64,000 bases of DNA from Dehalococcoidia bacterium (GCA_963422525.1 OY730226.1:2261813-2325812), one strand, 5' to 3'. Counted from the stretch's first letter, positions 8,592 to 42,365 are shown. Translations and numbers: made by a program. Notes: a model not told the origin generated them from the sequence alone.

Positions 8592-9731
8592 TCAATTCCC
8601 GTTCGAAATGAAGCCCAGCTTCTCGAACTCGCCGCCGATAATCGACCGCGAATCCATCTTCATCCAGTCCTCGACGAGCGTGGAATAGACGCTGCGGAAG
8701 TCCACACTTGGCACGACATCACCCTGCTGCAGGTCTTCGGGACGCAGCGACGGGTAATCACCATACTGACCGCCATTCACATTGTCGCCGATGACGAGCA
8801 CAGCGCCCGCAGCGCCATGGTCGGTGCCGGAGCCGTTGTCGTGTGTACGCCGCCCGAACTCCGAGAACAGGAGCATCACCACATTGTCGGAAGCGTCGCG
8901 TGCCCGCAGGTCGTCGAAGAAGTCGTTGATAGCAGCGGACAGGTCGCTCCACAGCCCCGCCAGCATGTTGGGCTGGCCCGCATGCGAATCGAAGCTGCCA
9001 TGGTCGCAGTAGAAAACGCGCGTCCCCAGCCCCGCCAGATGCACCTGCGCGATGCCCTTTAGCTTCTTTGCCAGCGTCGTGTCAGCGTACTCCACACTGG
9101 ACGAGTACCTCTCCGGCGCAACCTTCAAGATGTCAGCGCCCTGCAAAGCGTCCAATCCCGTCTGGCCAAGGAACTCCATTACCGGCCCCCTGCCGATAGC
9201 CTGTCCGTACAGCCGCGAGAACCTGTTCAGTATCTTCTGCCGCTGCTCTTCTGCGTCTATGCCGGGCATCAAGCCATAGTTGTTCAGGTCCTCGACGCAC
9301 GCCACCGGCACGCCGGGCACAGCCATCGCGCGGAACATGCTCGGGCCGAAGCTGACGCCCGTAACCACATTTTCTTTGTTGGGGTCAATCTCGCGGATGA
9401 CCTTGCCGAGCCAGCCCTCCGTGCCCACATCGTCCGGCTCGCATGTGTGCCAGATATCCATCGAGCGGAAGTGCGAGCGCGGCGAGTTTTCATAGCCTAC
9501 GCCGTGGACGATGGCGACATTGCCTTGGTTGTACAGGTCGCGCACCGCGCCCATCTGTGGGTGCAGCCCCACCTCGTCGTCGAGATGCAGCACCTGCTCC
9601 TGCGGAATGCCAACCGTCGGGCGATTGTCGTAGTAGATTTCGTTGTTGTACGGAATTACCGTGTTCAGGTAATCGTTGCCGCCCGAAAGCTGCACAACAA
9701 CCACGACCGGGTCTTTCTGCGCTGTCGTCAT
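8592..9731 (-). CDS. DUF1501 domain protein (sulfatase / alkaline-phosphatase-like fold)
   Basis: N-terminus VVVVQLSGGNDYLNTVIPY, then PRSHFRSMDIWHT and TEGWLGK, then C-terminal FSEFGRR...GTDHG. This is the DUF1501 pattern as I remember it. No Tat or Sec signal. Confidence 0.8.
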   Translation of the reverse strand: MTTAQKDPVVVVVQLSGGNDYLNTVIPYNNEIYYDNRPTVGIPQEQVLHLDDEVGLHPQMGAVRDLYNQGNVAIVHGVGYENSPRSHFRSMDIWHTCEPDDVGTEGWLGKVIREIDPNKENVVTGVSFGPSMFRAMAVPGVPVACVEDLNNYGLMPGIDAEEQRQKILNRFSRLYGQAIGRGPVMEFLGQTGLDALQGADILKVAPERYSSSVEYADTTLAKKLKGIAQVHLAGLGTRVFYCDHGSFDSHAGQPNMLAGLWSDLSAAINDFFDDLRARDASDNVVMLLFSEFGRRTHDNGSGTDHGAAGAVLVIGDNVNGGQYGDYPSLRPEDLQQGDVVPSVDFRSVYSTLVEDWMKMDSRSIIGGEFEKLGFISNGN

Positions 9732-9761
9732 TTTACATTCCCCTATTCTGGCGTAACTCGC

Positions 9762-17232: not shown

Positions 17233-18531
17233 CTAATATATCCCCGTCTCATTCGAAATCGCCTCTAGCCGCCGCTTGACGCCATTCGTGAACGCCGACG
17301 CCTCTGCGCCGTCCATGATGCGGTGATCGAAGGTGAGGCAAATGTTCATCATCGACCGAATGGCGATGGCGTCCCCAACCGCCACCGGGCGCTTGACCAC
17401 CGCCTCAGTCGTGAGGATTGCCGCCTGCGGATAGTTGATGATCGGCTGCGATGCCACAGATCCAAGCGCGCCTGTGTTGTTCACCGTGAATGTCCCCGAT
17501 TGCACATCCTCGATGCCAAGCCTGCCCTGCCGCGCGCGCGCCGTCAAATCCGACACGCGAACCGCTATACCCGCCACGCTCAGCGCATCGGCATCCCGCA
17601 GCGTCGGCACGACTAGCCCGTCCGGGGCAGCCACCGCGACGCCTACATTGATCCGTTTCTTCAAGACAATCGCGTCCTCGTCCCAAGACGAGTTGAGCAG
17701 TGGATTCTCCCGCAGCGACTCCGCGACCGCCTTAATGACAAAATGCAGATAAGTCAGGTTCACGCCCTCGCGACGCTGAAACTCGTCCTTCAACGCTTCT
17801 CGACGCCGCACCAGCCCGCTCACATCCACTTCCGTGATAGACCACGCCACCGGAATCTCAGACGCGCTGCGCTTCATATTCGCGGCAACCATGCGGCGGA
17901 GGGGCGTAAGCGGCAGGCGTTCTTCATCGGTGTCGGCTTGCGTATCAACAGGTGAAGCAGTAGATGCAGCCGTCTCCACCTGCGCCGCGCTGTATTCCAG
18001 CACATCCTTACGCGTTATGCGCCCATTGATGCCTGTGCCGCGCACCAGCGACAGGTCAATGCCCCGCTCACCGGCAAGCCGCTGCACCGCCGGCGAGTAG
18101 CGTCTACGTGGACGCGCATCCTCAGAAGATCCCTGATGAACGGCGTCTTGAGCGACGGGCACAGCCGCAGCGCCCGCGCCCGTCGGGCCCACAGGCGCTA
18201 CATCCTTCAGCAAAACGCCCGTGCGATCGATGCTCTGCGACAGTTCCGTAACATCGGAAGGCGACGACGCATCAGCGGATGGGTCAACGCCGGCGTCAAT
18301 ATCAGGTTCTATAGCGGCAATCGGCGCGCCCATCGAAACAGTCTGCCCTTCATCCGCCAGCAGATCGGTAATGACGCCAGCGACCGGCGACGGCATTTCC
18401 ATGCTCACCTTGTCCGTGAGCACCTCCACGAGCGCGTCGTACCTGTCCACATGGTCGCCAACCTGCTTCAGCCATTGCACGATTGTGCCCTCAGTAACCG
18501 ACTCTCCGACCTGCGGCAGTTGGATTATCAT
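17233..18531 (-). CDS. 2-oxoacid dehydrogenase E2 component (dihydrolipoamide acyltransferase)
   Basis: Lipoyl domain (LVEVLTDKVSMEMPSPVAG), E3/E1-binding domain (SPAVQRLAGERGIDLSLVRGTGINGRITRKDV) and catalytic DHRIMDG. Start trimmed to ATG 18531 (MIIQLPQVGE), which has AGGTGA upstream. Confidence 0.9.
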   Translation of the reverse strand: MIIQLPQVGESVTEGTIVQWLKQVGDHVDRYDALVEVLTDKVSMEMPSPVAGVITDLLADEGQTVSMGAPIAAIEPDIDAGVDPSADASSPSDVTELSQSIDRTGVLLKDVAPVGPTGAGAAAVPVAQDAVHQGSSEDARPRRRYSPAVQRLAGERGIDLSLVRGTGINGRITRKDVLEYSAAQVETAASTASPVDTQADTDEERLPLTPLRRMVAANMKRSASEIPVAWSITEVDVSGLVRRREALKDEFQRREGVNLTYLHFVIKAVAESLRENPLLNSSWDEDAIVLKKRINVGVAVAAPDGLVVPTLRDADALSVAGIAVRVSDLTARARQGRLGIEDVQSGTFTVNNTGALGSVASQPIINYPQAAILTTEAVVKRPVAVGDAIAIRSMMNICLTFDHRIMDGAEASAFTNGVKRRLEAISNETGIY

Positions 18532-21436: not shown

Positions 21437-22480
21437 ATGAAATTCGCCCTCATTACCCACTTGCCCTGGCCCGAAGGCACGGAGGCGCGCGCCATCGTGA
21501 AGCAGACGACCGAGGATGTGGTTCTCGGTGAGGAGCTTGGCTTCCACAGCGCCTGGTTCGCAGAGCACCACTTCACCCGATACGGCATCGGCTCATCCGC
21601 GCTCGTCTTCGCCGGCGCTATCGCCGCCCGCACCGACAAAATTAGGCTCGGAACCGCCGTGCTCGTTCCGCCGCTGCATAACCCCATCCGCCTAGCCGAA
21701 GATACCGCCACACTCGATCTAATCAGCAACGGACGCCTTGATGTCGGTTTCGGGCGCGGCGCATCCAGAAGTGAGTTCGCGCCATACGGAATTGACCATA
21801 GCGACACGCAGGCGAGATTTCAGGAATCGGTCAACATAATTCGAGGCTTATGGACTACGCCGGAATACACGCACGAGGGCAGCCACTACAGCGTACAGCA
21901 GGCGAACCTGGTGCCTCAGCCTGCGCAGAAGCCGCACCCGCCCATCTACATCGCCGCCACCCGCACGCCGGAGACGCTGGAATTCGCAGTGTCGAACAGC
22001 TTCCCCACGATGATAGGATTGACCGTTGACACCGCCCCCGCAATCGAACTTTGCCATCGATACGAAGCGATGTCAGCCGCCGCCGGACATAACATCACAG
22101 CCGCCAGCATTCCCTTCTTCCGCTACTGTTACTTGGCAGGCACGGAAGAGCAGGCGCGCGCGGATGCGCAGAAATCGCTTAACTGGGTCATAGACCTGCT
22201 GCAATGGCGCGGGACACTCAACGGCGCAAGCGAAGCGAGCAGCAGCATCGAAGAATGGCGCAGGACGCGCGGCAAGCCGTCGCTGACATTCGACCATGTG
22301 GCAGCCCACCGATCCATCATCGGAACACCTGACCAATGCATCGCCAAACTAAAGTCGCTGCAAGCGCAAGGAATAAAATACTTCGGCTGCAACTTCGCCT
22401 TCGGCTGCATGCCCCGCGACAAGGTGACGGCGGCGATGCGGCTGTTCGCCGAAGAGGTGATGCCGGAGTTCGCAGACTGA
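21437..22480 (+). CDS. LLM-class flavin-dependent oxidoreductase (luciferase-like monooxygenase)
   Basis: MKFALITH..., GFHSAWFAEHHF and RLDVGFGRG. Start trimmed to ATG 21437. Confidence 0.85.
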   Translation: MKFALITHLPWPEGTEARAIVKQTTEDVVLGEELGFHSAWFAEHHFTRYGIGSSALVFAGAIAARTDKIRLGTAVLVPPLHNPIRLAEDTATLDLISNGRLDVGFGRGASRSEFAPYGIDHSDTQARFQESVNIIRGLWTTPEYTHEGSHYSVQQANLVPQPAQKPHPPIYIAATRTPETLEFAVSNSFPTMIGLTVDTAPAIELCHRYEAMSAAAGHNITAASIPFFRYCYLAGTEEQARADAQKSLNWVIDLLQWRGTLNGASEASSSIEEWRRTRGKPSLTFDHVAAHRSIIGTPDQCIAKLKSLQAQGIKYFGCNFAFGCMPRDKVTAAMRLFAEEVMPEFAD

Positions 22481-22520
22481 GAACACTGCCAAAGAAATCT
22501 CAGCACCCTGATGCGGATCG

Positions 22521-24815
22521 TCACGGTGTTACTGTCGGCACGGGTGTTGCTTCCGGCGTGGCAGTGGGCGCAGGCTCAGGCGTGGCAGTGGACGCAGGCT
22601 CGGGCGTGGCAGTCGGCGCAGATTCGGGCGTGGCCGTCGGCTCAGGCTCGGGCGTGGCAGTCGGCGCAGGCTCAGGCGTGGCAGTGGGCGCAGGCTCAGG
22701 CGTGGCAGTGGACGCAGGCTCAGGCGTAGCCGTCGGCTCAGGCTCAGGCGTAGCCGTCGGCGCAGGCTCGGGCGTGGCAGTCGGCTCAGGCTCAGGCGTA
22801 GCCGTCGGCTCAGGCTCAGGCGTGGCAGTGGGCGCAGATTCGGGCGTGGCAGTGGACGCAGGCTCAGGCGTAGCCGTGGGCACAGGCTCAGGCGTAGCCG
22901 TGGGCACAGGCTCAGGCGTAGCCGTGGGCACAGGCTCAGGCGTAGCCGTGGGCGCAGGCTCAGGCGTAGCCGTCGGCTCAGGCTCAGGCGTAGCCGTCGG
23001 CGCAGGCTCGGGCGTGGCAGTGGGCGCAGGCGTAGCCGTCGGTTCAGGCTCAGGCGTGGCAGTCGGCGTAGGTTCAGGCGTTGTCGCCAGACATTCTTGG
23101 TCATTCGTCGCTTGGACGCCGTCTGCGGAGACGGACGCGGCTATTCGCAGCATCAGCAGGTCGCCGCCTTGCCAGGGTTGTTCGCATACTCCCCAAACGA
23201 AGGTTGCGATGTCCTCTTCGCCCGCGAACTCGATGGCGTCTTCGAAGAGTAGGCGCAGAGCGACCGAGCCGTCGAGGGCGATGAAGTCCAAGCGGTGGCT
23301 TGCGAGGTCCGGTAAGTCGTCCTCCACTTCGAGCGCGAGTTCGACCTGACCGTCCCGCCAGCGCAGGGCTTCAATTGCCGCCTCACGGTCATCGTACTCG
23401 AAGTCCGTGGGTTCTAGCGCGCCGTTGGCATTGTCCGCGCCCACAGCCGCGCCAATTGCCACAGGGTCGAAGAACGCTTCGTGCAGCGCGCCCGTTTCCG
23501 GAGAGAATGTGTACCTCTCTGCTACTGGCGGAACTGCATAGTCACACGGAATTTCCTCGGGCAGTTGAGCATGCCAGTAAATTTGATAGAGTCCGGATGG
23601 TAGGGGACGTACTGCCTTAAGATGAACATCGTATGCAGTAATTTCACTGCGTGTTGCCCAGTAGTCGGGTGTGATGACTTGCCCTCCCTCCAGTAATAAG
23701 ATTTGGAAGAACCTTGCATCCTCTCCCGTCAGCCACTCCTTTACATATCCTAATCCACCAAAGCGAGCGCTTCTGTCTATTATTGAATTAGCGGGTTGCC
23801 CGGAAGGGAATGGACCTAGCTCAGTTTGACGGGAAGAATAGGCTTCCTCTTCGACTTCCATGTATCTGCGGAGAAAGCGTTCACCGCGGAGCTTCGCCTC
23901 AATACATTCTCTGTAACCTTCGATGCCTTTTCCCTCTCTCAGTAGCGCATCCATCGCATTGATGCGTTCGCGCAAGTCCTCGATTGAAAACTCTGTGGGT
24001 TTATCAATCTCATCTGCAAGAAGTGAAGCGGATGCGACTCTGGCGGATTCGGTGGACAATGACCTATCGAAGCTCTCGACGGCGGGAAACCATCCGAGAG
24101 CCGTATTGTTCCCTCCCCATCCGTGTGATGAGTTTAAGGTGTCTGTCACAAATGAATATATTCTCTCTTCGTTTGACGCTTCGCGTGAGATCTCATCCGG
24201 ATACCTCACAGTTTTAAGGAAGACTACTGCTTCTCGGTTATTGAGTATAGGGTTTCGCAGGGCAAGTTCGCTCTCTGCGGAAGTTTCGGCATCTTCGTCG
24301 CTAAGTACAGTACGGGCGTATGCCATATCAACGGTTATTTTGGAGGCGCCGCTTCCCTTGAGGTATTCAATTACCTCGAAGTGGGTCTGTATCAGCGGAA
24401 TGTAGCCGGTTTGTCCGTCATTGCGCTGGGCCTTCAAAGTATCCACAAACGAGTCTGTTGGGCGCACGATAGCTATCACATCCGCGAAGAATATATGCTC
24501 ATTAAGTGAAAGGGGGCCGTCGAGATAAGTCTTAGGAGCTGAGCTCGCAGCTGCTGGGACTAAGGCCGGCGCTGATCCGGTGGACGGCGCAGGTGACTTT
24601 GACACTGACTTCGCCATTCCTGTTGTTGATGTGGTGGGCAGGGTAACCGCCGCTGAAACATCGGAAGTTGCTAGCCCATCCTTGGCGGTTGTGGGCTGGG
24701 GTGAGTTGCTGCAAGCTGCCATCATTATGACGACGAAACAGAACAGCGCCAGGATATATGCCCAAGATAATCGCGCGGTCAGAGTTACTTCCCTTCCGAG
24801 CACGACGAAGGTCAT
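22521..24815 (-). CDS. membrane-anchored / lipoprotein-like protein of unknown function with a C-terminal (TATPEPxP)n tail (copy A)
   Basis: 764 aa. ATG is preceded by TAAGGAG. N-terminal hydrophobic helix ends in a lipobox-like MAAC. The non-repeat body of about 540 aa recalls no family I know. The last 190 aa or so are about 22 octapeptide units of TATPEP(A/E/V)P. Confidence 0.75.
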   Translation of the reverse strand: MTFVVLGREVTLTARLSWAYILALFCFVVIMMAACSNSPQPTTAKDGLATSDVSAAVTLPTTSTTGMAKSVSKSPAPSTGSAPALVPAAASSAPKTYLDGPLSLNEHIFFADVIAIVRPTDSFVDTLKAQRNDGQTGYIPLIQTHFEVIEYLKGSGASKITVDMAYARTVLSDEDAETSAESELALRNPILNNREAVVFLKTVRYPDEISREASNEERIYSFVTDTLNSSHGWGGNNTALGWFPAVESFDRSLSTESARVASASLLADEIDKPTEFSIEDLRERINAMDALLREGKGIEGYRECIEAKLRGERFLRRYMEVEEEAYSSRQTELGPFPSGQPANSIIDRSARFGGLGYVKEWLTGEDARFFQILLLEGGQVITPDYWATRSEITAYDVHLKAVRPLPSGLYQIYWHAQLPEEIPCDYAVPPVAERYTFSPETGALHEAFFDPVAIGAAVGADNANGALEPTDFEYDDREAAIEALRWRDGQVELALEVEDDLPDLASHRLDFIALDGSVALRLLFEDAIEFAGEEDIATFVWGVCEQPWQGGDLLMLRIAASVSADGVQATNDQECLATTPEPTPTATPEPEPTATPAPTATPEPAPTATPEPEPTATPEPAPTATPEPVPTATPEPVPTATPEPVPTATPEPASTATPESAPTATPEPEPTATPEPEPTATPEPAPTATPEPEPTATPEPASTATPEPAPTATPEPAPTATPEPEPTATPESAPTATPEPASTATPEPAPTATPEATPVPTVTP
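22548..23080. repeat. 24-bp in-frame tandem repeat array (about 22 units) encoding the TATPEPxP tail of copy A
   Basis: Plus-strand unit is approximately GGCTCAGGCGTGGCAGTGGGCGCA, repeated head to tail with point variants. One unit is shortened to 18 bp. Confidence 0.9.
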
Positions 24816-24825
24816 TGTTCACTCC

Positions 24826-25332
24826 TTAGTGTGATGTGTGGTTGCCGTAGAGTGCCCTCATAGATTTCTTGTCATTGTCGTTGAGGTTTTGCGTATTATG
24901 GCCTATTCTGGCATTCATAGCGTCGCTCGGGTCGGAACTATGCCAAAGACCGGCTGCATGCCCAAATTCGTGTGCCATGTAAATGGGCATGTACAGAAAT
25001 CTAGAGAGTCTACGAGCATCAGCGAAGTTATTAGTCCACTGGTAGGATGTACCTCCCGAATTAGGCTGATACTCGAAGTGCAGTTTTTGTTGCCTGTTGA
25101 AGTGTGGATAAGTATCTCCTGATCCGTACACCACGCAGGCGATGTTCCCCCTACCGCAGTGGTCTGTGCCGCTGCGGCTGTAGTACCCCTGTACGACCAC
25201 ATCGGCGGATGAGGTCGAAGAGATTTTTGTGAACGACATGCCAGTCCCTGCGCCGTTCCACTTGCCGGCGCCTTGGTTAGTCGCCACTTTGTACTTGTCG
25301 ATGGTCTGCTGCACCAGCGTGACGTTCACCAC
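24826..25332 (-). CDS. metzincin-type zinc metalloprotease domain ORF (short paralog; possibly the surviving end of a decayed gene)
   Basis: 168 codons with HEFGHAAGLWH (HExxHxxGxxH). The C-terminus ...YGNHTSH parallels ...YYNHSPH of the large paralog. The only start is GTG with no SD. The stop sits directly before the SD of the next gene. Confidence 0.45.
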   Translation of the reverse strand: MVNVTLVQQTIDKYKVATNQGAGKWNGAGTGMSFTKISSTSSADVVVQGYYSRSGTDHCGRGNIACVVYGSGDTYPHFNRQQKLHFEYQPNSGGTSYQWTNNFADARRLSRFLYMPIYMAHEFGHAAGLWHSSDPSDAMNARIGHNTQNLNDNDKKSMRALYGNHTSH

Positions 25333-25545
25333 CAGCGGGCTGGCGAAGGCGTATGAGTAGCAATCGGCTTTGATGTCGGCGTCGGGACTGACGCGGAAAT
25401 GATGCTGAAGGTGTAAGTTCGCAGCAGAATGTTGGTGGAAGCGCGGCGCAGCTCCACTGTACCTATATCAGACTAACATCTGGCAAGATACACAGTCTGG
25501 CCATCATATCGCTCACGCTCATCGTAATCAGTTCTCGAATAATTT
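25333..25545 (-). pseudogene. decayed 5' remnant of a protease gene, homologous to 29340-29560
   Basis: Hand alignment to the large paralog. The remnant reads ...YDGQTVYLARC*SDIGTVELRRASTNILLRTYTFSIISASVPTPT...; the intact copy reads ...NGQTVYLAGCQSGIGTVELRHASTNALLRTYTFSISSASVPAPT.... The in-frame TAG at 25473-25475 replaces CAG. The frame then ends (ARWW*) out of frame with the 168-codon ORF. Confidence 0.6.
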
Positions 25546-25584
25546 CTCGGTTGAGCGGCAGAGCCATTTTGTGGAGGTTATTTT

Positions 25585-27714
25585 TCAGCCTGAATTATAT
25601 CGCAAAATCGCTGATGGCTCGGGCGTGGCAGTCGGTTCCGGCGTGGCAGTGGGCGCAGGCTCAGGCGTAGCCGTCGGCTCAGGCTCAGGCGTGGCCGTTG
25701 GCGCAGGTTCAGGCGTGGCAGTGGACGCGGGCTCAGGCGTAGCAGTCGGCACAGGCTCAGGCGTAGCAGTCGGCGCAGGCTCAGGCGTGGCAGTGGATGC
25801 AGGCTCAGGCATAGACGCCGGCTCAGGCTCAGGCGTGGCAGTCGGCGCAGGCTCGGGCGTAAATGTCGGCGCAGGCTCAGGCGTGGCAGTCGGCGCAGGC
25901 TCGGGCGCTGCCGTCGGCGCAGGCTCAGGCGTGGCCGTCGGCTCAGGCTCAGGCGTGGCCGTCGGCTCAGGCTCGGGCGTAGGCTCAGCCGTTGTCGCCA
26001 GACACTCGAGGTCATTCGTCGATTGGACGCCGTCTGCGGAGACGGACGCGGCTATTCGCAGCATCAGCAGGTCGCCATTCTGCCAGGGCTGTTCGCATAC
26101 GCCCCAAACGAAGGCTGCGATGTCCTCTTCGTCCGCGAACTCAACGGCGTCTTCGAAGAGTAGGCGCAGAGCGACCGAGCCGTCGAGAGCGATGAAGTCC
26201 AAGCGGTGGCTTGCGAGGTCCGGTAAGTCGTCCTCCACTTCGAGCGCGAGTTCGACCTGGCCGTCCCGCCAGCGCAGGGCTTCAATTGCCGCCTCCCGGT
26301 CATCGTGCTCGAAGTCCGTGGGGTCTAGCGCGCCGTTGGCATTGTCCGCGCCCACAGCATCGTCAATTGCCACAGGGTCGAAGAACGCTTCGTGCAGCGT
26401 GCCTGAAGGCGCGAAGACATCCACAACAAGTTCCTCCGATGTCCTCAATCTATCAGGATAGGCATTGCACGGAACATACTTGGCGTTCAGCGAGTTGATA
26501 TAGAAACGATAGTCACCCATAGGAAGGGGGCGAAGATTGCCGACCAGCGCTATGTCATCTACTATATGGAAGAGATGAGCGTCTTCTCCTTCCAGCCAAG
26601 CCTCTATATCGAAATCGTTCGCATATGTTATATCGGAGGGACCAAGATAGTCCGGAATCTGAAAGGGCCTTGTGCCGCGTGCGAACACCGTGTCTGCATG
26701 TGAGCCGGATGCCAGCTGGTGGTCATAAGTTTTAGTCCTGTAACCGTATTTAGAGGATGCGTTATGGTGCTCCACTTCTCTGTACCGTCTGTACTTTTCA
26801 TAGACACACCGGCTGTACTCCTCAGAACCGTCTCCCGCATCAACTTCCTCTTGCAACTCTGCGATGAGACCCTTCAGCCGTGAAAGCGTTATAGTAGATG
26901 AGTCGCCGCCCGTGCCCAAGGCTTTGTTGAAGGCGCTGTCCGCAACTCGGTAGTCTATTCGCTCCGCATATGATTCGCCTTCTACCCGCTTAGCGCCTGT
27001 GAGAAAACGCTGCTCGTCGCTATTCCCGTCGGCAGATGCAGGTGAGGCAATCTTGTCAACGCCTTCGATTTCATCGGCAGACGGAAGCCACTTCTTGGCG
27101 TCTGGGCTGTCTATGGCGTAGCCGTTGGTAGAGTCCCAAGGATTTGCCGTGCCCAGTTCATAGCGATCCGGCTGCTGCGTTGTGCTTACTACAGTCTGAT
27201 CCTTTCTCAGGAAGACTATCGCCTCCCTGTCGTCCCAGAAGGTATCGTGAGTTTCGGTGAAGGCTTCTCCGAACGCGAACGCTCCGACCTTGCTTTGGTA
27301 GATATACGGGTCGCTATGAACGATGCCCACAATTTCACCGCTGCCTCCTCCTTTCAGATACTCAATCACCTCAAAGCGGAACTCCAGCGCGTTAGCATAT
27401 ACGGTATGCTGGACCCACTCACCGTCCTCTTCCTGACCTGATAAATGGAGAGTTTCCACATTCGGGGACACAGAGAGCAGCCTAACCCTGGCTACGACAT
27501 CAGATTCCAAGATGCGTTCCTCAAGACTAATGGGGCCGCCGTAGTATGGTTGAGCGCCCAAGCCGCCTGATGGCAGTCTGTACAACAATGCAAAGCCAAT
27601 ATCGGCGGCGACGCCACTGAATATCATCACTCCAATGACGACCAAGAGAATAGCCACCGCAGCCGAGATTTTATACACGCGGCGGCTTATTTTGGTTCTC
27701 ATTCTGCGAAGCAT
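25585..27714 (-). CDS. membrane-anchored protein of unknown function with a C-terminal (TATPEPxP)n tail (copy B)
   Basis: 709 aa. ATG is preceded by GGAGG. N-terminal signal anchor (ISAAVAILLVVIGVMIFSGV). The body is homologous to copy A throughout: weakly at the N-terminus and nearly identically over the last 130 non-repeat residues or so. The tail has about 15 octapeptide units. Confidence 0.75.
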   Translation of the reverse strand: MLRRMRTKISRRVYKISAAVAILLVVIGVMIFSGVAADIGFALLYRLPSGGLGAQPYYGGPISLEERILESDVVARVRLLSVSPNVETLHLSGQEEDGEWVQHTVYANALEFRFEVIEYLKGGGSGEIVGIVHSDPYIYQSKVGAFAFGEAFTETHDTFWDDREAIVFLRKDQTVVSTTQQPDRYELGTANPWDSTNGYAIDSPDAKKWLPSADEIEGVDKIASPASADGNSDEQRFLTGAKRVEGESYAERIDYRVADSAFNKALGTGGDSSTITLSRLKGLIAELQEEVDAGDGSEEYSRCVYEKYRRYREVEHHNASSKYGYRTKTYDHQLASGSHADTVFARGTRPFQIPDYLGPSDITYANDFDIEAWLEGEDAHLFHIVDDIALVGNLRPLPMGDYRFYINSLNAKYVPCNAYPDRLRTSEELVVDVFAPSGTLHEAFFDPVAIDDAVGADNANGALDPTDFEHDDREAAIEALRWRDGQVELALEVEDDLPDLASHRLDFIALDGSVALRLLFEDAVEFADEEDIAAFVWGVCEQPWQNGDLLMLRIAASVSADGVQSTNDLECLATTAEPTPEPEPTATPEPEPTATPEPAPTAAPEPAPTATPEPAPTFTPEPAPTATPEPEPASMPEPASTATPEPAPTATPEPVPTATPEPASTATPEPAPTATPEPEPTATPEPAPTATPEPTATPEPSAILRYNSG
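25617..25990. repeat. 24-bp in-frame tandem repeat array (about 15 units) encoding the tail of copy B
   Basis: Same 24-bp unit family as 22548..23080. Confidence 0.9.
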
Positions 27715-27767
27715 CTAGCTTCCTCCGTGATCACTATTTTCAGCGCCGATTTCTAGTGCGGGTTATG

Positions 27768-30225
27768 CTAGTGCGGGCTGTGGTTGTAATAGACCTGCCG
27801 TATGTAGGCTTTGTCCCTGCTCGGTATGGAGCTGACATCGGAGTTATCACTCGGTCCCATCAGGTAGTCGGAATAACCTGTGAGATCAGAGTGGTAAAGG
27901 TCGGTCAGTCCAGCCGTGTGGCCAAACTCGTGCATCACTACACCCGGGGCGTACGTCCAGAAATAAACATATTTCGCTTCAAGCCCAGGAACATCTTGTC
28001 TTTCCATATCATTTAGCACCTGATTGTGCTTAGAGGCGTCATCGGTCCAAAAGTACCCGGTGAATTTTTTGGTATTAGAGTTATATGACCAAGCGGGTTC
28101 TTCGATGACCATATACAGGGACTGCAGATGATCGCCGACTACCGGCAGCCACTTGAGCCAAGTGGTTGCAAAGCCGAGTATGCCGTTCGGCTTGACGCAG
28201 GCATAGGCATTTCCGCAGTGCGGTCGCGCCAAGACGGTCACAAGCCATGGATCACTTTTATCCAAGAAGATGCCTTTGCCGCCTCTCGCGACGTTTATCA
28301 ACACATGTTCGCCGTCGGTGTTCTTGTCGGTCCCACCAACAAGACACTCGTTGGCCTTGTTTCTGGTGCTGTCGTCCTTGCAGAACAGCACTCTCGGATT
28401 CGTGTTGGCAGTCGCGCTGTTCCAGGCGCGTGCGGCAGAAGATATAGCCGCCGGAATAACGGTGGCAGGGTCTTCCACCGGGTTAGAAGGCTGTGGGGCC
28501 GGCCTCAGCGGCTGGATTGTGCCTATCTTGTACTTGACGGTATGGTCCTGCTGATGTCCCAACCAAGGGATGCGTCCCTTTATCGTTAACGCAAAGCTTC
28601 CCGGGCTACGGCTCGACACGGCGACAGTGTAATCTCCCGTTGCCTCGATAATATCTGAACCAGTGTAGTGCGCACGTCCGGATGTGCGCGTGCCGCTGCG
28701 AATTGTCGCGTTGCCGCCATTCGTCACATCCATGGTCACATGCGCCGATTTTATTAGATTGAATCTGTAGTAGCGAACATAGCGTTTGGAACGTACTACA
28801 CCCATTGTGCAGCCACTGTCCCAGTTGCCGTTGGCGCTAATCTGGTATCCGCTAGCGCCTGTGCTTGAAAGGTCGCCTAGATAGACGGCATTACAATTGG
28901 CTGTAGGCGTAGGCGCAGGCACGGGTGTAGGGATGGGGATGGGAGCAATGGTTGAGATACTTATCCTGAGGTTGAAGTCGCCTCTTGCGCCGGAATTATA
29001 GGTGGTGGCTTCAATCGTGTAAGCGCCGGGCGCGAGGATCTGAGATATTCGAGAGTTCTTGCCGTTGGAGTCGTCGTTTGAAGCCACGACCGTGCCGTTC
29101 TTGCCGTATCCTTGCATTAGGTACAGGTATGGGTCGGTAGATGATGTGAGGTCAATCTGAACATCGGAGCGGTTATCCAACCAGAAGGTATAGAAGCGGG
29201 CGTACTTGCCGCTGTTCCTCTCGGACAGGCATGAACTGTCCCAAGCGCTGATGCGGGTGGTTTTGCCACCCAGAGTTCCCAGTGGATTGACGCAAGGGGT
29301 AGACGGTGGCGTATGAGTAGCAGTCGGGGTAGGCGTCGCTGTATCAGTCGGCGCTGGGACTGATGCTGAGCTGATGCTGAATGTGTAAGTTCGCAGCAGA
29401 GCGTTGGTGGAAGCGTGGCGCAATTCCACCGTACCTATACCCGATACCCGACTGACACCCAGCAAGGTACACAGTCTGGCCATTGCTGCGGGTTTTGGTA
29501 TCGTTTCTCTCCGCTCCGTCAGCGCAGTAGCTGCCACTACCGCTAGTGCTTATCTCCACATTGAGCGGGGCGCTGTCAGGGTTGGCGACCACCTTGACTC
29601 TTTCGCTGGAATTGACGGTGAACCTGTGCCAGCTGCCGTTGGGTTGGAAGTTGACGGTCGAAGGGTCAGGCGAAAGGTACGCGGAGGTGGTTCTAGGTAT
29701 TGGCGTCGGGACCGATCCGCCACCGCCTGATGAGGAACTTGTCAGCGTGATGACAATATCGTAATCTGTGCCGTCCCGCAGCGGATTGGACGATATGTTG
29801 TGGAACTCGAACTTCTGCGTTATGCTGGGATTGCTCTCACAGTAGTCATCGGTGCGCCATGGGTTGTTGCTCCATTGGCTGTCTGTTCTTGAAAAGGTGC
29901 GCGTGCCTATCTGTAGGCTTTTGAAATCCGACGGCTTAAGACACTCCTCAAATCGAAACTCAATCTCATCTGCCGAGTCGTCCCACTTGATGTATTTTAT
30001 GGTGTAGGTTCTGCCATTGTGTCGGAATGTGCGATCGTCTATATCGCCGAATTTGCCGTGCTCGTAGCCGTATTCGTCGTCTCCGGGTTCTCGCTCGGCT
30101 TCGAGTGTGGCGCTCCATGTTACTGAAGCCTGCGCGGCTGTGATGCGGACATTCAGAACCCAAAACAGCAACATTGCTACGATGATTACGCCACTGATGT
30201 AAGTGAGACGAAGCTGTAAGGGCAC
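27768..30225 (-). pseudogene. large secreted multidomain metzincin protease, split by a +7 frameshift
   Basis: Domain order: signal anchor, unknown domains, two PPC-like beta-sandwich repeats, then an HEFGHTAGLTD protease domain. Two track ORFs (29344..30225, 293 aa with signal anchor and AAQA/S site; 27768..29537, 589 aa) overlap in different frames. Removing one copy of a 7-bp tandem duplication at 29438-29451 joins them (...TVYLAGCQSGIG|TVELRHAS...) into one 816-aa ORF. The downstream part has two roughly 100-aa repeats with the pre-peptidase C-terminal (PPC) pattern (RFYTFWL...DLTS..DPYLYL...AYTIEATTY) and HEFGHTAGLTDLYH. Confidence 0.7.
29438..29451. repeat. perfect 7-bp tandem duplication (TACCCGA x2 on the plus strand) causing the frameshift
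   Basis: Read directly: 29438-29444 TACCCGA and 29445-29451 TACCCGA. The paralogous remnant near 25465 has exactly 7 nt fewer at this point. Confidence 0.9.
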
Positions 30226-30692
30226 TATTGTCCTTTCTCGCGATATGGGGAGGGGCTTGCGCTCCGGTAGAGCGCGCTTTTTCGATTTAGAGAATGCTTT
30301 GCATTCTTATCAGCGGCAACATTTAATGTCAAGTTCATGTTGAGTCGATTGCCTAAGGCAATGACTTCACCGTCGGAGTCCGCGCTGAATATCTGCGCAA
30401 CAGGTGGTTCCTCCGGGACAGAGTCGGGCAATCCCTTCATCCACTCGGTTGCTTGCTCCGTCGCGTCAGGGTTGGACAATATGTAACTCCCATCTTCGCT
30501 CTGCCGTTCACCAGGCAGAGGTGTAGAAGCGACTTCCTCATTAGCTTGCTGAGATGATATCGACACCGATACTACCTCTTCGCCAGTCAGCTCATCCGAC
30601 GCCGGCGGTATGCACGCAATCAGGATAAACGCCGCAATGACACTATTCGCCAAAGAGGTGATGCCGCAACTGGCAGGATGAGGACAGAGCAT
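30225..30692 (-). CDS. chimeric or truncated lipoprotein paralog (duplication scar; possibly not functional)
   Basis: 155-aa ORF. Residues ~24-114 (from the IAC of the lipobox, ...IACIPPASDELTGEEVVSVSISSQQANEEV...SDGEVIALG) are near-identical to the N-terminal part of the 31920..32675 product. The flanking N- and C-terminal residues are unrelated to it. Confidence 0.35.
   Translation of the reverse strand: MLCPHPASCGITSLANSVIAAFILIACIPPASDELTGEEVVSVSISSQQANEEVASTPLPGERQSEDGSYILSNPDATEQATEWMKGLPDSVPEEPPVAQIFSADSDGEVIALGNRLNMNLTLNVAADKNAKHSLNRKSALYRSASPSPYREKGQ
30352..30622. repeat. 271-bp near-identical segmental duplication, copy 1
   Basis: Hand alignment with 32341..32611 gives equal lengths and 5 mismatches by my count. 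Confidence 0.85.
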
Positions 30693-30717
30693 AAATTTGA
30701 CTGAACCCGTCGCCTTA

Positions 30718-31596
30718 TCATCGAACCCGCGTCACTCGAACAGCGAATCTACTGACATCCGCTGAAGTTCTGCCGCGCGCTACGTCGATCACGCTGGCGA
30801 GTACCCACCCCACCGCACTCGCCGTCCACTCTGGCAACTTAACGAACACGCCTACATCTGATTGTGGAGCAACAGGGTAGAATGGTGTCTCGACAGGAAT
30901 TTTGACCATGTATTCCTCAGGCACTGCCGCGAATGTTCTGAACTCGAATGGATCGGTGTTCCTCCATTGCAATGTGGCGACCAACTCGGAAACTTCATCA
31001 GATCCAATCAGGCTTTGGTCGAAGGTCACTATCGCATCAGCTCCCACCTTCAAGTCTATATTGAACCAGTTGAGCACAGAGACGAGGTACCCAAAGCAGG
31101 ACTGTGCATCGGCATCCAGACTAGTTGCTGTCACCTGAATGCCGGACAATTCGACGACGCCAAAACGGCGGAGCGCATCATCGAAACACTGAACCAACGC
31201 CGGCAGCGCAGCAGCAGGCTCGACAGTTCGTCGGATTAGTCCGAGCGATGCATAACTAAAACCTCCAACAGGCGGCGATGCTCTGCCCGGCTTAAGGCTG
31301 CCAACATCCAGTCCGACCTGAACGAATCCGATCCGGGATGGGTCAGTATTGGCGGTTATCTCCGCCTCCTCCATCGACCATAGTAGCGGACGGTCATTGG
31401 AAGAAGAAGTGGTGGCCCAACCCATCAATTCAGCCCGTTCTCTAAAAACGCTGTGAAGGTCTTCTTCCTCGGCATCAATAGTCGGCAAGCCAGATAGCTG
31501 TCCGAAAGCCTCAACAAAAATCGTTGCCGACCTGCCTGCGAAAATCATTGACGACATCACTGCTAATCTCCGTAACCGGGTCCCGGTGGGCGACAT
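30718..31596 (-). CDS. hypothetical protein, no export signal, no recognised domain
   Basis: 292-aa ORF (ATG 31596). An alternative ATG at 31557 has GGAG about 10 nt upstream. It is the only product in the island without a signal or anchor. Confidence 0.5.
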   Translation of the reverse strand: MSPTGTRLRRLAVMSSMIFAGRSATIFVEAFGQLSGLPTIDAEEEDLHSVFRERAELMGWATTSSSNDRPLLWSMEEAEITANTDPSRIGFVQVGLDVGSLKPGRASPPVGGFSYASLGLIRRTVEPAAALPALVQCFDDALRRFGVVELSGIQVTATSLDADAQSCFGYLVSVLNWFNIDLKVGADAIVTFDQSLIGSDEVSELVATLQWRNTDPFEFRTFAAVPEEYMVKIPVETPFYPVAPQSDVGVFVKLPEWTASAVGWVLASVIDVARGRTSADVSRFAVRVTRVR

Positions 31597-31919
31597 TCTA
31601 CTTGTTCGACTTTGTACACCTTGTCGGGTGGGTCAATTTTGCCCGGAATGTCAACATCTACAACGCTTCGATACCCAGTTTTTTGGGCGAAGCGCAGTCG
31701 TGCCTGACAACCACTCTCCTGCCTGATCCCCCCGTTCCAGTTCTGAGGCGCTTCTCCTGCCTATCGAGTGAGTCCCAATAGCAATTGACCGAAAGTAGCA
31801 AAACCAAAGACTCGCTATGAAATCCACACTCATCACGCATCTCCCATGCCCAAAGGGGTGAACAACGACACTCCGCGTAAGATAACAAATCCGTTCACAC
31901 ATATCACTGCTAAGCGCCG

Positions 31920-32675
31920 TTACTTATCCGCAAGACGGAATGTCCAGTTAGACATCACCGAATCGCCTCCGCCAACCAACCTATCGCCCTCACGCTTCGG
32001 TGGAACAATCCACATAGCAAAGACCGATACATACGGGGACAGGAGAACCTCCGGCGGGATACTGTGATACTCTACAAAGCCATCCGGCGTGATTCGCTCA
32101 CACGGATTACGGTCAGAGCGCGTACATTCATAAGATATTACTTTTTCACCTGCGATAGGCCAATGGGTATCAGAATCCACCCTGCTAACGCCCGTCACTA
32201 TAACCATATGGGTACGCGAACCGGTTAGAAAACGGAGAACCCGTTTCTTGCCCAATACCACCGGCTCCGGCCATGTCAGAATGGGCAAGTCGGGTCTAGG
32301 TAGATTCCGAGAAGTATCCCAGTTCACATAGTAAGGAATACCTAAGGCAATGACTTCACCGTTGGAGTCCGCGCTGAATATCTGCGCAACAGGTGGCTCC
32401 TCCGGGACAGAGTCGGGCAATCCCTTCATCCACTCGGTTGCTTGCTCCGTCGCGTCAGGGTTGGACAATATGTAACTCCCATCTTCGCTCTGCCGTTCAC
32501 CCGGCAGAGGTGTAGAAGCGACTTCCTCATTAGCTTGATGAGATGATATCGACACCGATACTACCTCTTCGCCAGTCAGTTCATCCGACGCCGGCGGTAT
32601 GCACGCAATCAAGGTGAGCGGGAAGACAGGCGCAACCAACTCGAGTAGCCTTTTCGCGGCAGTGCGAAACAACAT
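31920..32675 (-). CDS. lipoprotein of unknown function
   Basis: Start trimmed to ATG 32675 (MLFRTAAKRLLELVAPVFPLTLIACIPP, lipobox LIAC), 20 nt after the upstream stop. An acidic Glu/Ser-rich linker is followed by a C-terminal domain of about 130 aa with no family I recognise. Confidence 0.6.
   Translation of the reverse strand: MLFRTAAKRLLELVAPVFPLTLIACIPPASDELTGEEVVSVSISSHQANEEVASTPLPGERQSEDGSYILSNPDATEQATEWMKGLPDSVPEEPPVAQIFSADSNGEVIALGIPYYVNWDTSRNLPRPDLPILTWPEPVVLGKKRVLRFLTGSRTHMVIVTGVSRVDSDTHWPIAGEKVISYECTRSDRNPCERITPDGFVEYHSIPPEVLLSPYVSVFAMWIVPPKREGDRLVGGGDSVMSNWTFRLADK
32341..32611. repeat. 271-bp near-identical segmental duplication, copy 2
   Basis: See 30352..30622. Confidence 0.85.
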
Positions 32676-32694
32676 AGTGGGTTCCTTGGGCGCA

Positions 32695-33252
32695 TTATTG
32701 ATTATTGCACTGAATATTCCTAGGCACACTGGTAGTCTCTGCAGTTGCAGGGTTGAATCCGGGCAGATAGATGACATAGCCCCAACCTGTACCTCTATAC
32801 CATGTATTTCTACACAAACCATTGGACCTAGCTACGCCTGTCTTGACACCGAAGCCTTCAAAATCTGTATGGCGTGGGTCATCACTGGATGGAATTTCCC
32901 AATAACCTATCCCTTCATGATTGCTTGACATCAATCTAGCATAGTGAGCCATTTCTGCTACTATGAAGCCGCATCTAGCGGTAACTTTAGTATTCACACG
33001 ATGCTCATATCCGGACGTTGTGGATTTATGAGGTCGATCGGCAGTCTGTCTACAGCCTACCAGCGCCCCATAGTAGTCTGAAGCGGGATGAATTATAGAT
33101 TTCAAAATTCCACCAGACGAAACGGGGGCTAAGGCATATCCGCTGTTTGCCGGATGGTTCACAGATTCAGGCCCATCCGCAAACACATCCAACCGATTCG
33201 CTGAGAGCAAAATTGCGACTGTCAACAGAACTACTGTTATGCGTATAATCAT
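32695..33252 (-). CDS. secreted protein of unknown function
   Basis: 185 aa. Strong AAGGAGG SD. Signal peptide MIIRITVVLLTVAILLSANRLDVFA|D. Four Cys in the mature part. No recognised domain. Confidence 0.6.
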   Translation of the reverse strand: MIIRITVVLLTVAILLSANRLDVFADGPESVNHPANSGYALAPVSSGGILKSIIHPASDYYGALVGCRQTADRPHKSTTSGYEHRVNTKVTARCGFIVAEMAHYARLMSSNHEGIGYWEIPSSDDPRHTDFEGFGVKTGVARSNGLCRNTWYRGTGWGYVIYLPGFNPATAETTSVPRNIQCNNQ

Positions 33253-39880: not shown

Positions 39881-40624
39881 TCAGCCATGTTGAGCGTATT
39901 TCTTATCTATAACTACGGTGTTACTCTTTGTGTATTTCATATAGTCGCACTCGTCAATTATCTTCGCAAGGCTGTTATTGTTTGAGCAGCTAGCTGTGAA
40001 TGACTCGATAGCATTCCCATAAGATAGCCCTTCCCGATTCATCGACTCATCTATGGCATGCTTGGCAATCATCTGCATTTCGGGGAGAAATACATGCGCA
40101 TAGTCGCAACCATTACGCCCAACACAGTAGCCCGACTGAATGGCGCAGTCCCACATCACAAACAGGTCCAGATTGACGGCGGCGCTCAACATCTTCGAAG
40201 TTGCGGCCGACAAATACGCACTCCGCCCGTCCCGTCTGCGACCGGCGCCAACTATCGTATCGAATGACTTCGCAATCAAACCACTAACATTCATTCCGCT
40301 TGAAATACGACCATCGAAATCCACATCAAGCAGGCTTTCGCCTCGCAGCGAATTCAACGCAGGGACCGCTTCCTTAAAAGGCAGACAAAATCCGCTCTAC
40401 ATTCGCGCAAAACTAGGCATTCTGACATTCCATTCATTGACAAAACGAACGGCTTTTCTTGCTTCATCATCAAGGCATTCAGGATTGTTCCACTTCCTAA
40501 AGTCCCTTTGGCGTAGATACTTCGGATACGCCTCACCATATCCACCTTGATGATACTTCTCACACCCCAGCCGTATCGCCTCATACAACATCTGCGCCAA
40601 CCCTCCTATGCCAACTAACCCCAA
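39881..40624 (-). pseudogene. unknown gene interrupted by a single in-frame amber codon
   Basis: Track ORFs 40397..40624 and 39881..40357 are in the same frame (744 nt, 248 codons). Only the TAG at 40397-40399 separates them, followed by 13 sense codons. The region is AT-richer than its flanks. No family recognised. Confidence 0.55.
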
Positions 40625-40648
40625 TCCTACGCATACCGTCCATGGATG

Positions 40649-41215
40649 TTAGTCCCGCGCCAACTCACCCTGAAACACACTGTCCAAGTCTATCACCAAC
40701 CCCCCGAGAGTCGCCGAAGTGAAACTCTGACCTTCGCCATACTCGCCCGCAACCTCCAGATTGCCGTCCCGAAGAACCAGCGCCCATAATTTCCGCTCCT
40801 CCGGATCTACAAGCCACATCTCTTTGACGCCATGACGCGCGTATAACTCTCGTTTCTGCGTCCAGTCCCGTCTAACCGTAGAAGGCGACAGTATCTCCAC
40901 CACCAAGTCGGGCGCTCCCTGCACATTCGCAGCCGTGATTATGTCCGCGCGCTCCCTGGAAATGAACAGCAAGTCCGGCTGCACCACATCATGCTCAGTC
41001 AGAACCACATCGACGGGAGCATAGAACACCCAACCCAGCCCCATTTCTTCGACTGCCAGCATCAGGGCGTACAACTTCTTGCTAACCCACTGATGAACGA
41101 TGTAAGGCGCTCCAACCAAAATCAGCTCCCCGTCGATAAGTTCATACCGCTCATCACCCAGCAGGTTCGCGTAATCGTCATAAGTAAGTTTCACCTTCGG
41201 CTTGGCTTGTACCAT
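40649..41215 (-). CDS. Uma2 family (DUF820) PD-(D/E)xK-fold endonuclease, tandem copy 1
   Basis: TYDDYANL..ERYELIDGELI, QPDLLFI, PDLVVEILSPST..RD...K..LYARHGVKEMWLVDP: the Uma2 pattern. Confidence 0.85.
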   Translation of the reverse strand: MVQAKPKVKLTYDDYANLLGDERYELIDGELILVGAPYIVHQWVSKKLYALMLAVEEMGLGWVFYAPVDVVLTEHDVVQPDLLFISRERADIITAANVQGAPDLVVEILSPSTVRRDWTQKRELYARHGVKEMWLVDPEERKLWALVLRDGNLEVAGEYGEGQSFTSATLGGLVIDLDSVFQGELARD

Positions 41216-41226
41216 CTTCAGCCTCC

Positions 41227-41790
41227 CTAACTCGCCAACTCACCCTGAAACACACCGTCCAAGTCTATCACCAACCCCCTGAGAGTCGCCGAAGTGAAAC
41301 TCTGCCCCTCGCCATACTCGCCTGCAACCTCCAGATTGCCGTCCCGAAGAACCAGCGCCCATAATTTCCGCTCCTCCGGATCTACAAGCCACATCTCTTT
41401 GACGCCATGACGCGCGTATAACTCTCGTTTCTGCGTCCAGTCCCGTCTAGCCGTAGAAGGCGACAGTATCTCCACCACCAAGTCGGGCGCTCCCTGCACA
41501 TTCGCAGCCGTGATTATGTCCGCACGCTCCCTGGAAATGAACAGCAAGTCCGGCTGCACTACATCATGCTCAGTCAGAACTACATCGAACGGAGCGATAT
41601 AGATCCATCCCAATCCGTCGTCTTCTGCCGATAGCATCAACCGAAACAGCCTTTTGACTGTCCTCTGATGAATCTCATTCGGCGACCCAACCAAAATCAA
41701 CTCTCCATCGATAAGTTCATACCGCTCGTCGCCCGACAGGTTCGCGTAATCGTCATAAGTAAGTTTCACCTTCGGCTTGGTTTGTACCAT
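41227..41790 (-). CDS. Uma2 family endonuclease, tandem copy 2
   Basis: Same motifs as copy 1. An 11-nt spacer containing GGGAGG separates it from the neighbour. Confidence 0.85.
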   Translation of the reverse strand: MVQTKPKVKLTYDDYANLSGDERYELIDGELILVGSPNEIHQRTVKRLFRLMLSAEDDGLGWIYIAPFDVVLTEHDVVQPDLLFISRERADIITAANVQGAPDLVVEILSPSTARRDWTQKRELYARHGVKEMWLVDPEERKLWALVLRDGNLEVAGEYGEGQSFTSATLRGLVIDLDGVFQGELAS

Positions 41791-41801
41791 CTTCAGCCTC
41801 C

Positions 41802-42365
41802 CTAACTCGCCAACTCACCCTGAAACACACCTTCCAAGTCTATCACCAACCCCCCGAGAGTCGCCGAAGTGAAACTCTGCCCTTCGCCATACTCGCCCGC
41901 AACCTCCAAGTTGCCGTCCCGAAGAACCAGCGCCCATAGTTTCCGCTCCTCCGGATCTACAAGCCACATCTCTTTGACGCCATGACGCGCGTATAACTCT
42001 CGCTTCTGCGTCCAGTCCCGTCTAGCCGTAGAAGGCGACAGTATCTCCACCACCAAGTCGGGCGCTCCCTGCACATTCGCAGCCGTGATTATGTCCGCAC
42101 GCTCCTTGGAAATAAACAGCAAGTCCGGCTGCACCACATCGTGATCAGTCAGCACCACATCAACCGGCGCGAAGTAGAGCCATCCCAATCCGTCGTCTTC
42201 TGCCGATAGCATCAGACGAAACAATCTCTTCCCAAGCCTTTGATGAATCAGGTAAGGCGCTCCAACCAAAATCAACTCTCCATCGATAAGCTCATACCGC
42301 TCGTCGCCCGGCAGGTTCGCGTAATCGTCATAAGTAAGTTTCACCTTCGGCTTGGCTTGTACCAT
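41802..42365 (-). CDS. Uma2 family endonuclease, tandem copy 3
   Basis: Same motifs as copy 1. An 11-nt spacer containing GGGAGG separates it from the neighbour. Confidence 0.85.
   Translation of the reverse strand: MVQAKPKVKLTYDDYANLPGDERYELIDGELILVGAPYLIHQRLGKRLFRLMLSAEDDGLGWLYFAPVDVVLTDHDVVQPDLLFISKERADIITAANVQGAPDLVVEILSPSTARRDWTQKRELYARHGVKEMWLVDPEERKLWALVLRDGNLEVAGEYGEGQSFTSATLGGLVIDLEGVFQGELAS

Follow-up and report, generated by a model that had tools for sequence, protein, structure and literature searches.

In the serralysin-inhibitor operons (AprA/AprI and PrtA/Inh), a metzincin gene lies beside the gene for its cognate proteinaceous inhibitor, and the producer is protected. Inh and AprI are small periplasmic eight-stranded barrels with a free N-terminus that is inserted into the active site. 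The potempins of Tannerella forsythia are membrane-anchored lipoproteins that are co-transcribed with, and inhibit, their peptidases, so that the cell surface is protected (PMC9890683). PotA, PotC and PotD have a five-stranded oligonucleotide/oligosaccharide-binding (OB) fold, one potempin target is karilysin, which resembles matrix metalloproteases (MMPs), and several such pairs occur in one genome (PMC9890683). Here, a locus of comparable organization is described from a Dehalococcoidia bacterium (GCA_963422525.1 OY730226.1:2261813-2325812), in a 64,000-nt stretch of DNA hereafter called the window. It carries, twice, a metzincin protease gene (P) followed by a gene for an anchored partner protein (X). 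The functional unit is this two-gene cassette, P then X, which recurs in sponge-associated Dehalococcoidia. The X family and its pairing with P are undescribed; the protease superfamily is known, and the logic of the cassette has precedents.

Two further groups of described proteins are relevant. The zinc motif of the Asp-zincin or snapalysin type is HEXXHXXGXXD (PMC3890501). The eukaryotic-like proteins named in sponge symbionts are ANK, TPR and LRR repeat proteins, and the paper on sponge Chloroflexi genomes in which they are named does not contain the words cadherin, fibronectin, peptidase or protease (PMC6306507).

The two-gene cassette

Nine tightly packed, co-directional minus-strand open reading frames (ORFs) occupy positions 22521-33252 of the window, between two plus-strand luciferase-like monooxygenase (LLM) genes that both match Pfam Bac_luciferase (3.5e-69 and 7.2e-47). 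All of them lie where an earlier, sequence-only reading of the window had placed them. The genes of the window are labelled A to H, and related contigs or loci are numbered L001 onwards. The two cassettes consist of E (27768-30225, minus strand; a multidomain metzincin of ~816 aa once repaired) with F (25585-27714, minus strand; an X-family protein of 709 aa, identified from its ORF, homologues and an AlphaFold model), and of G (24826-25332, minus strand; a 168-aa remnant ORF for a matrixin catalytic domain) with H (22521-24815, minus strand; an X-family protein of 764 aa, X-family hidden Markov model (HMM) E 9.6e-147).

A scan of 185,579 GTDB species-representative genomes gave 409 X matches. 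The best 80 of the 409 were all from Dehalococcoidia, Chloroflexota or SAR202 metagenome-assembled genomes (MAGs), often with several copies per genome. Among 241 million JGI metagenome records there were six X matches, all in the sponge metagenomes LXNJ01 or MKWU01. Every X match that could be attributed thus came from Dehalococcoidia/Chloroflexota MAGs or from sponge metagenomes.

HMMs of X and of the protease catalytic domain were used to label the ORFs of 79 related loci, every one from a Dehalococcoidia/Chloroflexota MAG. Of 48 P genes, 45 had X directly downstream on the same strand; the gap between them was 15 nt at the median and 30 nt or less in 36 of the 45 pairs. Of the other three P genes, one is at the end of its locus and two are true exceptions. 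The adjacency that the sequence-only reading had pointed out in the window is therefore conserved. The reverse does not hold, as P lies upstream of only 45 of the 126 X genes, and in 25 cases another X stands there. Tandem arrays are common; L006, for example, reads X-P-X-P-X-P-X-P-X, and L038 has four P-X units. The earlier statement that the protease stop is at once followed by a Shine-Dalgarno sequence is accurate for the junction of G with H, where the stop of G overlaps that of H (TAAGGAG). It does not extend to E and F: the ATG of F comes 53 nt after the stop of E, and 40 nt separate the stop from a GGAGG that is 7 nt ahead of the ATG.

The P genes share a C-terminal catalytic domain with HEFGHxxGLxD (less often ending in H), a Met-turn and a terminal ..D..Y..Y, and their N-terminal modules vary (PPC, He_PIG or fn3). 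In an alignment of 16 P genes, H197, E198, H201 and G204 are invariant and M221 nearly so. E consists of a signal peptide, Ig-like domains, PPC domains (Pfam, 2.2e-5) and a C-terminal catalytic domain (catalytic-domain HMM, 1.1e-75) in which the third zinc ligand is Asp; its HEFGHTAGLTD...DYLMG conforms to HExxHxxGxxD with a conserved Met downstream. A 7-bp tandem duplication, TCGGGTA TCGGGTA (approximately 29434-29447, minus strand), breaks E near 29440 into two frameshifted ORFs (29344-30225 and 27768-29537). Alignment showed one copy of TCGGGTA in each of the relatives L001, L085 and L086, and deletion of one copy from E gave a single 816-aa ORF, which bears out the earlier description of a frameshifted metzincin of that length. 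The L001 orthologue is intact, with 824 aa. Pfam, searched for curated catalytic families (M7, M10, M12 and others), returned only PPC for E, NCBIfam gave a partial M6-domain match below threshold (25 bits; cut-off 110.8), and a PDB sequence search with the intact L001 orthologue was empty.

G carries the motif HEFGHAAGLWHSSDPSDAM, that is, an HExxHxxGxxH zinc motif followed by Ser and a Met-turn. It matches the matrixin M10A profile (Pfam PF00413, Peptidase_M10, 1.2e-10; 42 bits against a cut-off of 24), and its best PDB matches are the catalytic domains of MMP-12, MMP-2 and MMP-7 (E about 1e-6). G is not a complete secreted zymogen with signal peptide and prodomain, as its ORF starts inside a remnant and has no signal peptide. 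The 5' part of this protease (25333-25584, minus strand) is a fragment of an E-like Ig domain with 80% nucleotide identity to 29347-29483 of E. Its three-frame translations show ..GQTVYLARC, an in-frame TAG and SDIGTVELRRASTN.., with a change of frame ahead of the matrixin ORF. All four G-type units examined share this 5' remnant, and two of them (L001 and L085) are also broken by stops or frameshifts within the catalytic ORF. The likeness of G to E is limited to the surroundings of the zinc motif, and G is therefore no recent duplicate of E; the decay proposed earlier stands. Both P copies of the source genome are dead, E by frameshift and G by decay, and both X genes are intact.

H has a lipobox (IMMAAC), an S/T/P-rich linker, an OB-fold N-domain, a helical hairpin, cadherin-like sandwiches and a PT-repeat tail; in F, an N-terminal transmembrane (TM) or signal helix is followed by domains in the same order and a PT tail. 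The two proteins are about 30% identical over the N-terminal ~440 aa. Their last ~130 aa and repeats are nearly identical and form a common block of about 0.8 kb with 87% nucleotide identity. Tandem Repeats Finder resolved the tails into 24-nt repeats, 22.2 copies in H (22555-23081, minus strand), encoding (TATPEPxP)n, and 14.2 copies in F (25640-25980, minus strand). Two long plus-strand ORFs opposite them (22336-23349 and 25571-26461), in which GSGVAVG abounds, are not genes but artefacts of reading the PT-repeat arrays in antisense.

With the non-repeat part of F as query, upwards of 217 strong homologues of 500-850 aa were found, the best at E 2e-298. As the sequence-only reading had supposed of the anchored proteins, they fall outside known families: the X core had no match in Pfam, NCBIfam, PHROG, PADLOC or PDB sequence searches. 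That reading had named the pair by its TPEP tail, which is not a defining feature: the C-terminal additions of relatives vary (fn3, cadherin, LRR, PT repeats or no tail). The anchor is N-terminal. Of 120 homologues, a lipobox is present in 38 and a TM- or signal-like hydrophobic N-terminal helix in 69, the latter type with a conserved SGFAxDIGxALxYRLP segment after the helix. Sorting from the C-terminus, by sortase (LPXTG) or PEP-CTERM, does not fit F and H, whose tails end in ...TPEATPVPTVTP and ...TPEPSAILRYNSG without a hydrophobic segment. Tat, type IV pilin, PEP-CTERM and sortase signals were rejected for X as inconsistent across homologues.

C303 and C416 are invariant in the family, and another conserved Cys pair close to the C-terminus would be consistent with a location outside the cytoplasm. 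In the C-terminal sandwich (residues ~436-575 of F and H; window 25990-26400 and 23091-23500), which is homogenized between these paralogues, H441, E442, D446, D511, W537, W544 and R553 are invariant and Q542 nearly invariant; this conservation suggests a putative metal site or intramolecular cross-link. A thioester at the conserved VCxQPW was considered and set aside, as the spacing of Cys and Gln is unlike that of the thioester motif, CGEQ, and the domain is a beta-sandwich. A putative disulfide from this Cys to the C-terminal Cys is more likely.

In 28 complete pairs, distances between P catalytic domains correlate with those between X N-domains (r 0.77) and X middle regions (r 0.82), and to a lesser degree with those between C-terminal domains (0.43). 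These correlations suggest that the cassette evolves as a unit. The composition of the two proteins would also suit an enzyme that degrades matrix and an anchor that binds it, co-regulated for foraging on, or residing in, sponge extracellular matrix and not interacting directly. Both proteins have export signals and modules of host-matrix type (PPC, He_PIG and fn3 in P; fn3, cadherin and LRR in X), and many X genes stand alone. Such independence is nevertheless unlikely, because gaps of about 15 nt and overlapping stop and Shine-Dalgarno sequences indicate coupled translation, a typical trait of partners that interact; the cassette is also duplicated as a whole, and only specific parts of X co-diverge with P.

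Predicted structure and candidate role of X

Residues 1-575 of F were modelled with AlphaFold from 54 sequences (pLDDT 82.5, pTM 0.73). The model predicts, in order, an N-terminal helix (2-46), a barrel of OB type (60-215) that includes two strands of 22 residues, a linker without order, a hairpin of helices (277-320) and beta-sandwiches (328-556). A Foldseek search of PDB with the whole model gave nothing at E < 1e-3. The folds closest to the C-terminal sandwiches are desmocollin, cadherin-23 and protocadherin-15 (E 2e-3 to 4e-2), with a local root-mean-square deviation (rmsd) of 4.5-5.7 Å over about 120 columns, and Pfam cadherin has no match inside the X core. When the N-domain was modelled separately (pLDDT 88.3), its top three Foldseek neighbours in PDB were TIMP-2 in complex with MMP-13, free TIMP-2 and the NTR module of PCOLCE (probability 0.99-1.0). 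Generic OB folds came next, with much lower probability.

The reading preferred here, tentatively, is that X may be a membrane-tethered binding partner, either inhibitor or dock, of its cognate protease. P would be a secreted multidomain metzincin with a matrixin-like catalytic domain at the extreme C-terminus and Asp or His as third zinc ligand. X, made from the same transcript, would be tethered to the cytoplasmic membrane through a lipid anchor or N-terminal helix, with the OB domain beside the membrane, then the helical hairpin, a pair of cadherin-like sandwiches and, facing outward, a variable tail. It would bind cognate P through the OB domain and the adjacent region, and keep it inactive or docked at the surface of its own cell, protecting the wall-less envelope. 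Alternatively, X might position P against sponge matrix bound by the tail modules. Tight translational coupling, an X after nearly every P without the converse, and the retention of X after loss of P all point to a physical partnership, as do membrane tethering and an OB domain whose nearest solved neighbours are metalloprotease inhibitors. Survival of X while P decays, together with the many X genes without P, is a pattern that would match orphan immunity or inhibitor genes.

A number of observations weigh against this reading. The match of the X N-domain to TIMP/NTR is weak in itself (E 3e-3 to 3e-2, TM-score 0.33-0.45, rmsd 7-9 Å). Alignment of X with four human TIMPs by hhalign, limited in that the TIMP sequences were entered by hand, gave a probability of 0.1, and neither Pfam TIMP (PF00965) nor NTR (PF01759) was found in any of the 54 X members at E up to 5. 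The N-domain (residues 50-215) contains no invariant or near-invariant Cys. Further, the N-terminus of X is joined to a lipobox or TM helix, and hence the TIMP mechanism, in which a free Cys1 chelates the zinc, cannot apply. The most invariant residues of X (HEAFFDP, D511, W537, W544 and R553) are in the C-terminal sandwich and not in the OB domain, so some other conserved function exists. X is also four to five times the size of known bacterial protease inhibitors. With respect to the pairing, 81 of 126 X genes have no adjacent protease, the co-divergence of P and X would be explained by linkage alone, and the rate at which X follows P is subject to ascertainment bias, since the loci were found via X. 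A protease search of JGI metagenomes that was independent of X (a 7-sequence alignment that matched 600 patterns) found no homologue.

A motif of X, SDVVARVRLLS...EFRFEVIEYLKG, was also likened to ADVVIRAKAVS...RYEIKxxKMYKG of TIMP; given the hhalign result, no homology is claimed.

A bolder form of the proposal would make the cassette a bacterial counterpart of animal MMP and TIMP. Membrane-tethered proteins with a TIMP/NTR-like OB domain would then act specifically on cognate matrixin-like proteases, by inhibition or docking, and host MMPs might be targets too; tandem amplification and recombination would multiply and reshuffle the pairs, and the symbiont would remodel or resist the sponge matrix while sparing its own wall-less surface. 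This is doubtful. The more restricted reading of X as a tethered partner of P has consequences of its own. The X core is a large family absent from every domain database, and its near-obligate coupling to a metzincin yields a testable hypothesis of function. If X inhibits or docks P, it would represent a new class of multidomain, membrane-anchored metalloprotease regulator and would offer a handle on how abundant uncultured sponge symbionts deal with host matrix.

Turnover of the locus and genes A to D

Three related contigs illustrate the dynamics of the array. L086 is conspecific (98.5% nucleotide identity to the window) and keeps A-D; its E is without the 7-bp duplication, and an insertion sequence (IS) element of the IS4/5 family (~840 bp, L086:12979-13818, with DUF4096 and DDE_Tnp_1 ORFs) lies between the 3' end of D and the start of E, inserted between window positions 30287 and 30300. 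L085 occupies the same site between two LLM genes, and its flanks are 98% identical to those of the window, whereas the P-X region is only 84% identical. L001 has a collinear E-F-G-H array and one extra unit, at 87.5% identity, in a different genomic context and without A-D. Past the third X gene of L001, an isolated fragment of an X C-terminal domain (17599-18062) has 90% nucleotide identity to window 23068-23518; it holds a 104-aa ORF (17654-17968) and looks like the remnant of a fourth cassette.

Compared with L085, the flanking LLM genes have a synonymous divergence (dS) of about 0.05 and a ratio of nonsynonymous to synonymous divergence (dN/dS) of 0.02-0.11, and F has a dS of 0.48 and a dN/dS of 0.33. 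The corresponding values are 0.11 and 0.26 for H against the second X of L001 (97% protein identity), and 0.19 and 0.47 for repaired E against the P of L001. Thus, X is under purifying selection (dN/dS 0.26-0.34), and synonymous divergence in the cassette region is about tenfold above that of the flanks. Across 60-codon windows of F, dS ranges from 0.16 to 2.1, which indicates a recombination mosaic. There was no sign of positive selection: dN/dS stays below 1 overall in all gene pairs, and nowhere does it rise above 0.9 in 60-codon windows whose dS could be measured. The sequence-only reading had seen repeated rearrangement here, which is upheld, and had attributed it to diversifying pressure. 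The latter attribution is not sustained by dN/dS values of 0.26-0.47, which are seen as the outcome of mosaic recombination and relaxed constraint, without demonstrable positive selection. The C-terminal domain of X undergoes concerted evolution between paralogues, and the array has moved between genomic sites. G-type units are broken upstream of intact X genes; hence, proteases decay while X genes stay constrained. The locus illustrates cassette turnover in general, with repeated protease decay, retention of partner genes and relocation of the array.

The same dynamics bear on another possible role, in which X would serve wall-less Dehalococcoidia as a variable adhesin or envelope protein at the surface, and P would be a processing or shedding protease that trims or releases the outward modules of X. 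Tight co-transcription of the two genes is consistent with this, as are the FN3, cadherin, LRR or PT tails of X relatives, the cadherin-repeat-like C-terminal domains and a distribution confined to sponge-type metagenomes. Tandem arrays of X paralogues, homogenized in the C-terminal domain and mosaic and fast-diverging elsewhere, also speak for it. It is somewhat unlikely, however, as X has stayed whole and constrained beside two dead P genes, and with 81 of 126 X genes lacking an adjacent P, maturation cannot depend on a cis-encoded protease. It also leaves unexplained why X follows nearly every P and why the OB domain covaries with P. The reading of X as a binding partner of P, inhibitor or dock, is therefore still preferred.

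The sequence-only reading had further assigned all nine ORFs to one cell-surface system around the duplicated pair. Their common direction and tight packing, the export signals on most of them and a promoter-like site upstream of A speak for this, although sites of that class are not enriched over shuffled sequence. Such a system is very improbable. A-D are present at none of the 79 other P-X loci, the collinear array of L001 lies elsewhere without them, C travels with integrases and transposases, B belongs to a separate small family and A is an orphan; in the conspecific L086, the IS element separates D from E. The nine ORFs are a composite, in which A-D are unrelated passengers. None of the four had a match in Pfam, NCBIfam, PHROGs, PADLOC or PDB sequence searches.

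A (32695-33252, minus strand) encodes a secreted protein of 185 aa with no homologue outside the source species; apart from A itself, the search gave a single member, of at least 90% identity. B (31920-32678, minus strand) encodes a lipoprotein with the lipobox LIAC, of 251 aa from an internal Met and called at the same length in L086. It belongs to a family of proteins of about 200 aa, without assigned function, that has 47 cluster representatives among 1.84 billion proteins. D (30225-30692, minus strand) is a truncated duplicate of the 5' part of B, as proposed earlier: the two share 271 nt at 98% identity, and 88% amino acid identity over 102 residues. The 271-nt direct repeats (30352-30622 and 32341-32611) flank the 3' part of B and C, which is compatible with a tandem duplication of B-C followed by deletion, or with a C-bearing element that carries a copy of the 5' end of B. 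In L085, 169 bp (32531-32362) are missing inside B.

C (30718-31596, minus strand; 279-292 aa) belongs to a multi-copy family associated with mobile elements and has 447 strong homologues. Elsewhere (L081-L084, around 7369-10028), homologues form a trio of a 172-aa ORF, a 267-aa C homologue and a convergent 317-aa tyrosine integrase, of which identical copies occur on up to 29 contigs, amid transposases and defence genes (GmrSD, PIN and HicAB). The trio is probably an undescribed small integrative element. Only the C gene and about 77 nt upstream are kept in the window (30718-31673). As its homologues are multi-copy and lie beside integrases or transposases, C is regarded as a mobile-element passenger. 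A 236-aa PPC-domain ORF (L082:14737-15447), 48% identical to the PPC region of E, lies inside one such cluster, and PPC modules may therefore travel with elements of this kind.

The island had also been described as richer in A+T than its flanks. G+C content (GC) is indeed modestly lower over 27-33 kb (0.50-0.55 against about 0.55-0.61 in the flanks), but the PT-repeat stretches of the island are GC-rich. Elsewhere in the window, GC skew is unusually negative at 40001-42000 (-0.30 to -0.33), and GC falls to 0.48-0.49 at 61001-63000. A scan of the whole window with Rfam found no RNA family, and neither promoter-like nor terminator-like sites were enriched over shuffled sequence.

Comparison with known systems

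Like the systems in which eukaryotic-like proteins have been named, the cassette occurs only in sponge-associated bacteria, and relatives of X and P carry LRR, FN3 and cadherin adhesion modules. It differs in that the X core contains no eukaryotic-like repeat and lies outside every described family. Among proteases, E and most P genes share with Asp-zincins and snapalysin the motif HEFGHxxGLxD, followed by a Met-turn-like YLM. In contrast to these, P is large and multidomain (PPC, Ig or FN3), and its catalytic alignment is otherwise matrixin-like (AWN and C-terminal ..D..Y..Y).

With regard to the animal MMP/TIMP system, G matches M10 as well as MMP-12, MMP-2 and MMP-7, and the N-domain of X is predicted to be an OB barrel after a helix, with TIMP-2 and NTR as its best solved neighbours. 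However, X has no Cys1, conserved set of disulfides, free N-terminus or profile similarity, the TM-score is below 0.5, and the third zinc ligand of most P genes is Asp rather than His. P-X resembles the serralysin-inhibitor operons in that a metzincin and its neighbour are encoded in one operon, whereas X differs from the inhibitors in fold, size and anchoring.

Potempins are single-domain proteins of 98-132 aa, encoded upstream of the peptidase and anchored in the outer membrane (PMC9890683). The X core, by comparison, has at least 500 aa and several domains, is encoded downstream of P and belongs to a monoderm-type envelope, and inhibition by X is a prediction. No sequence relationship between the two was found, and no potempin was among the top 50 fold matches of the X N-domain. 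What the cassette shares with the potempin/KLIKK-peptidase pairs is an anchored partner (by lipobox in H and in 38 of 120 homologues) whose gene adjoins that of the peptidase at a median of 15 nt. The logic of the model proposed here, in which a tethered X would restrain or dock its protease at the cell surface, would be that of these pairs and of TIMP and MMP.

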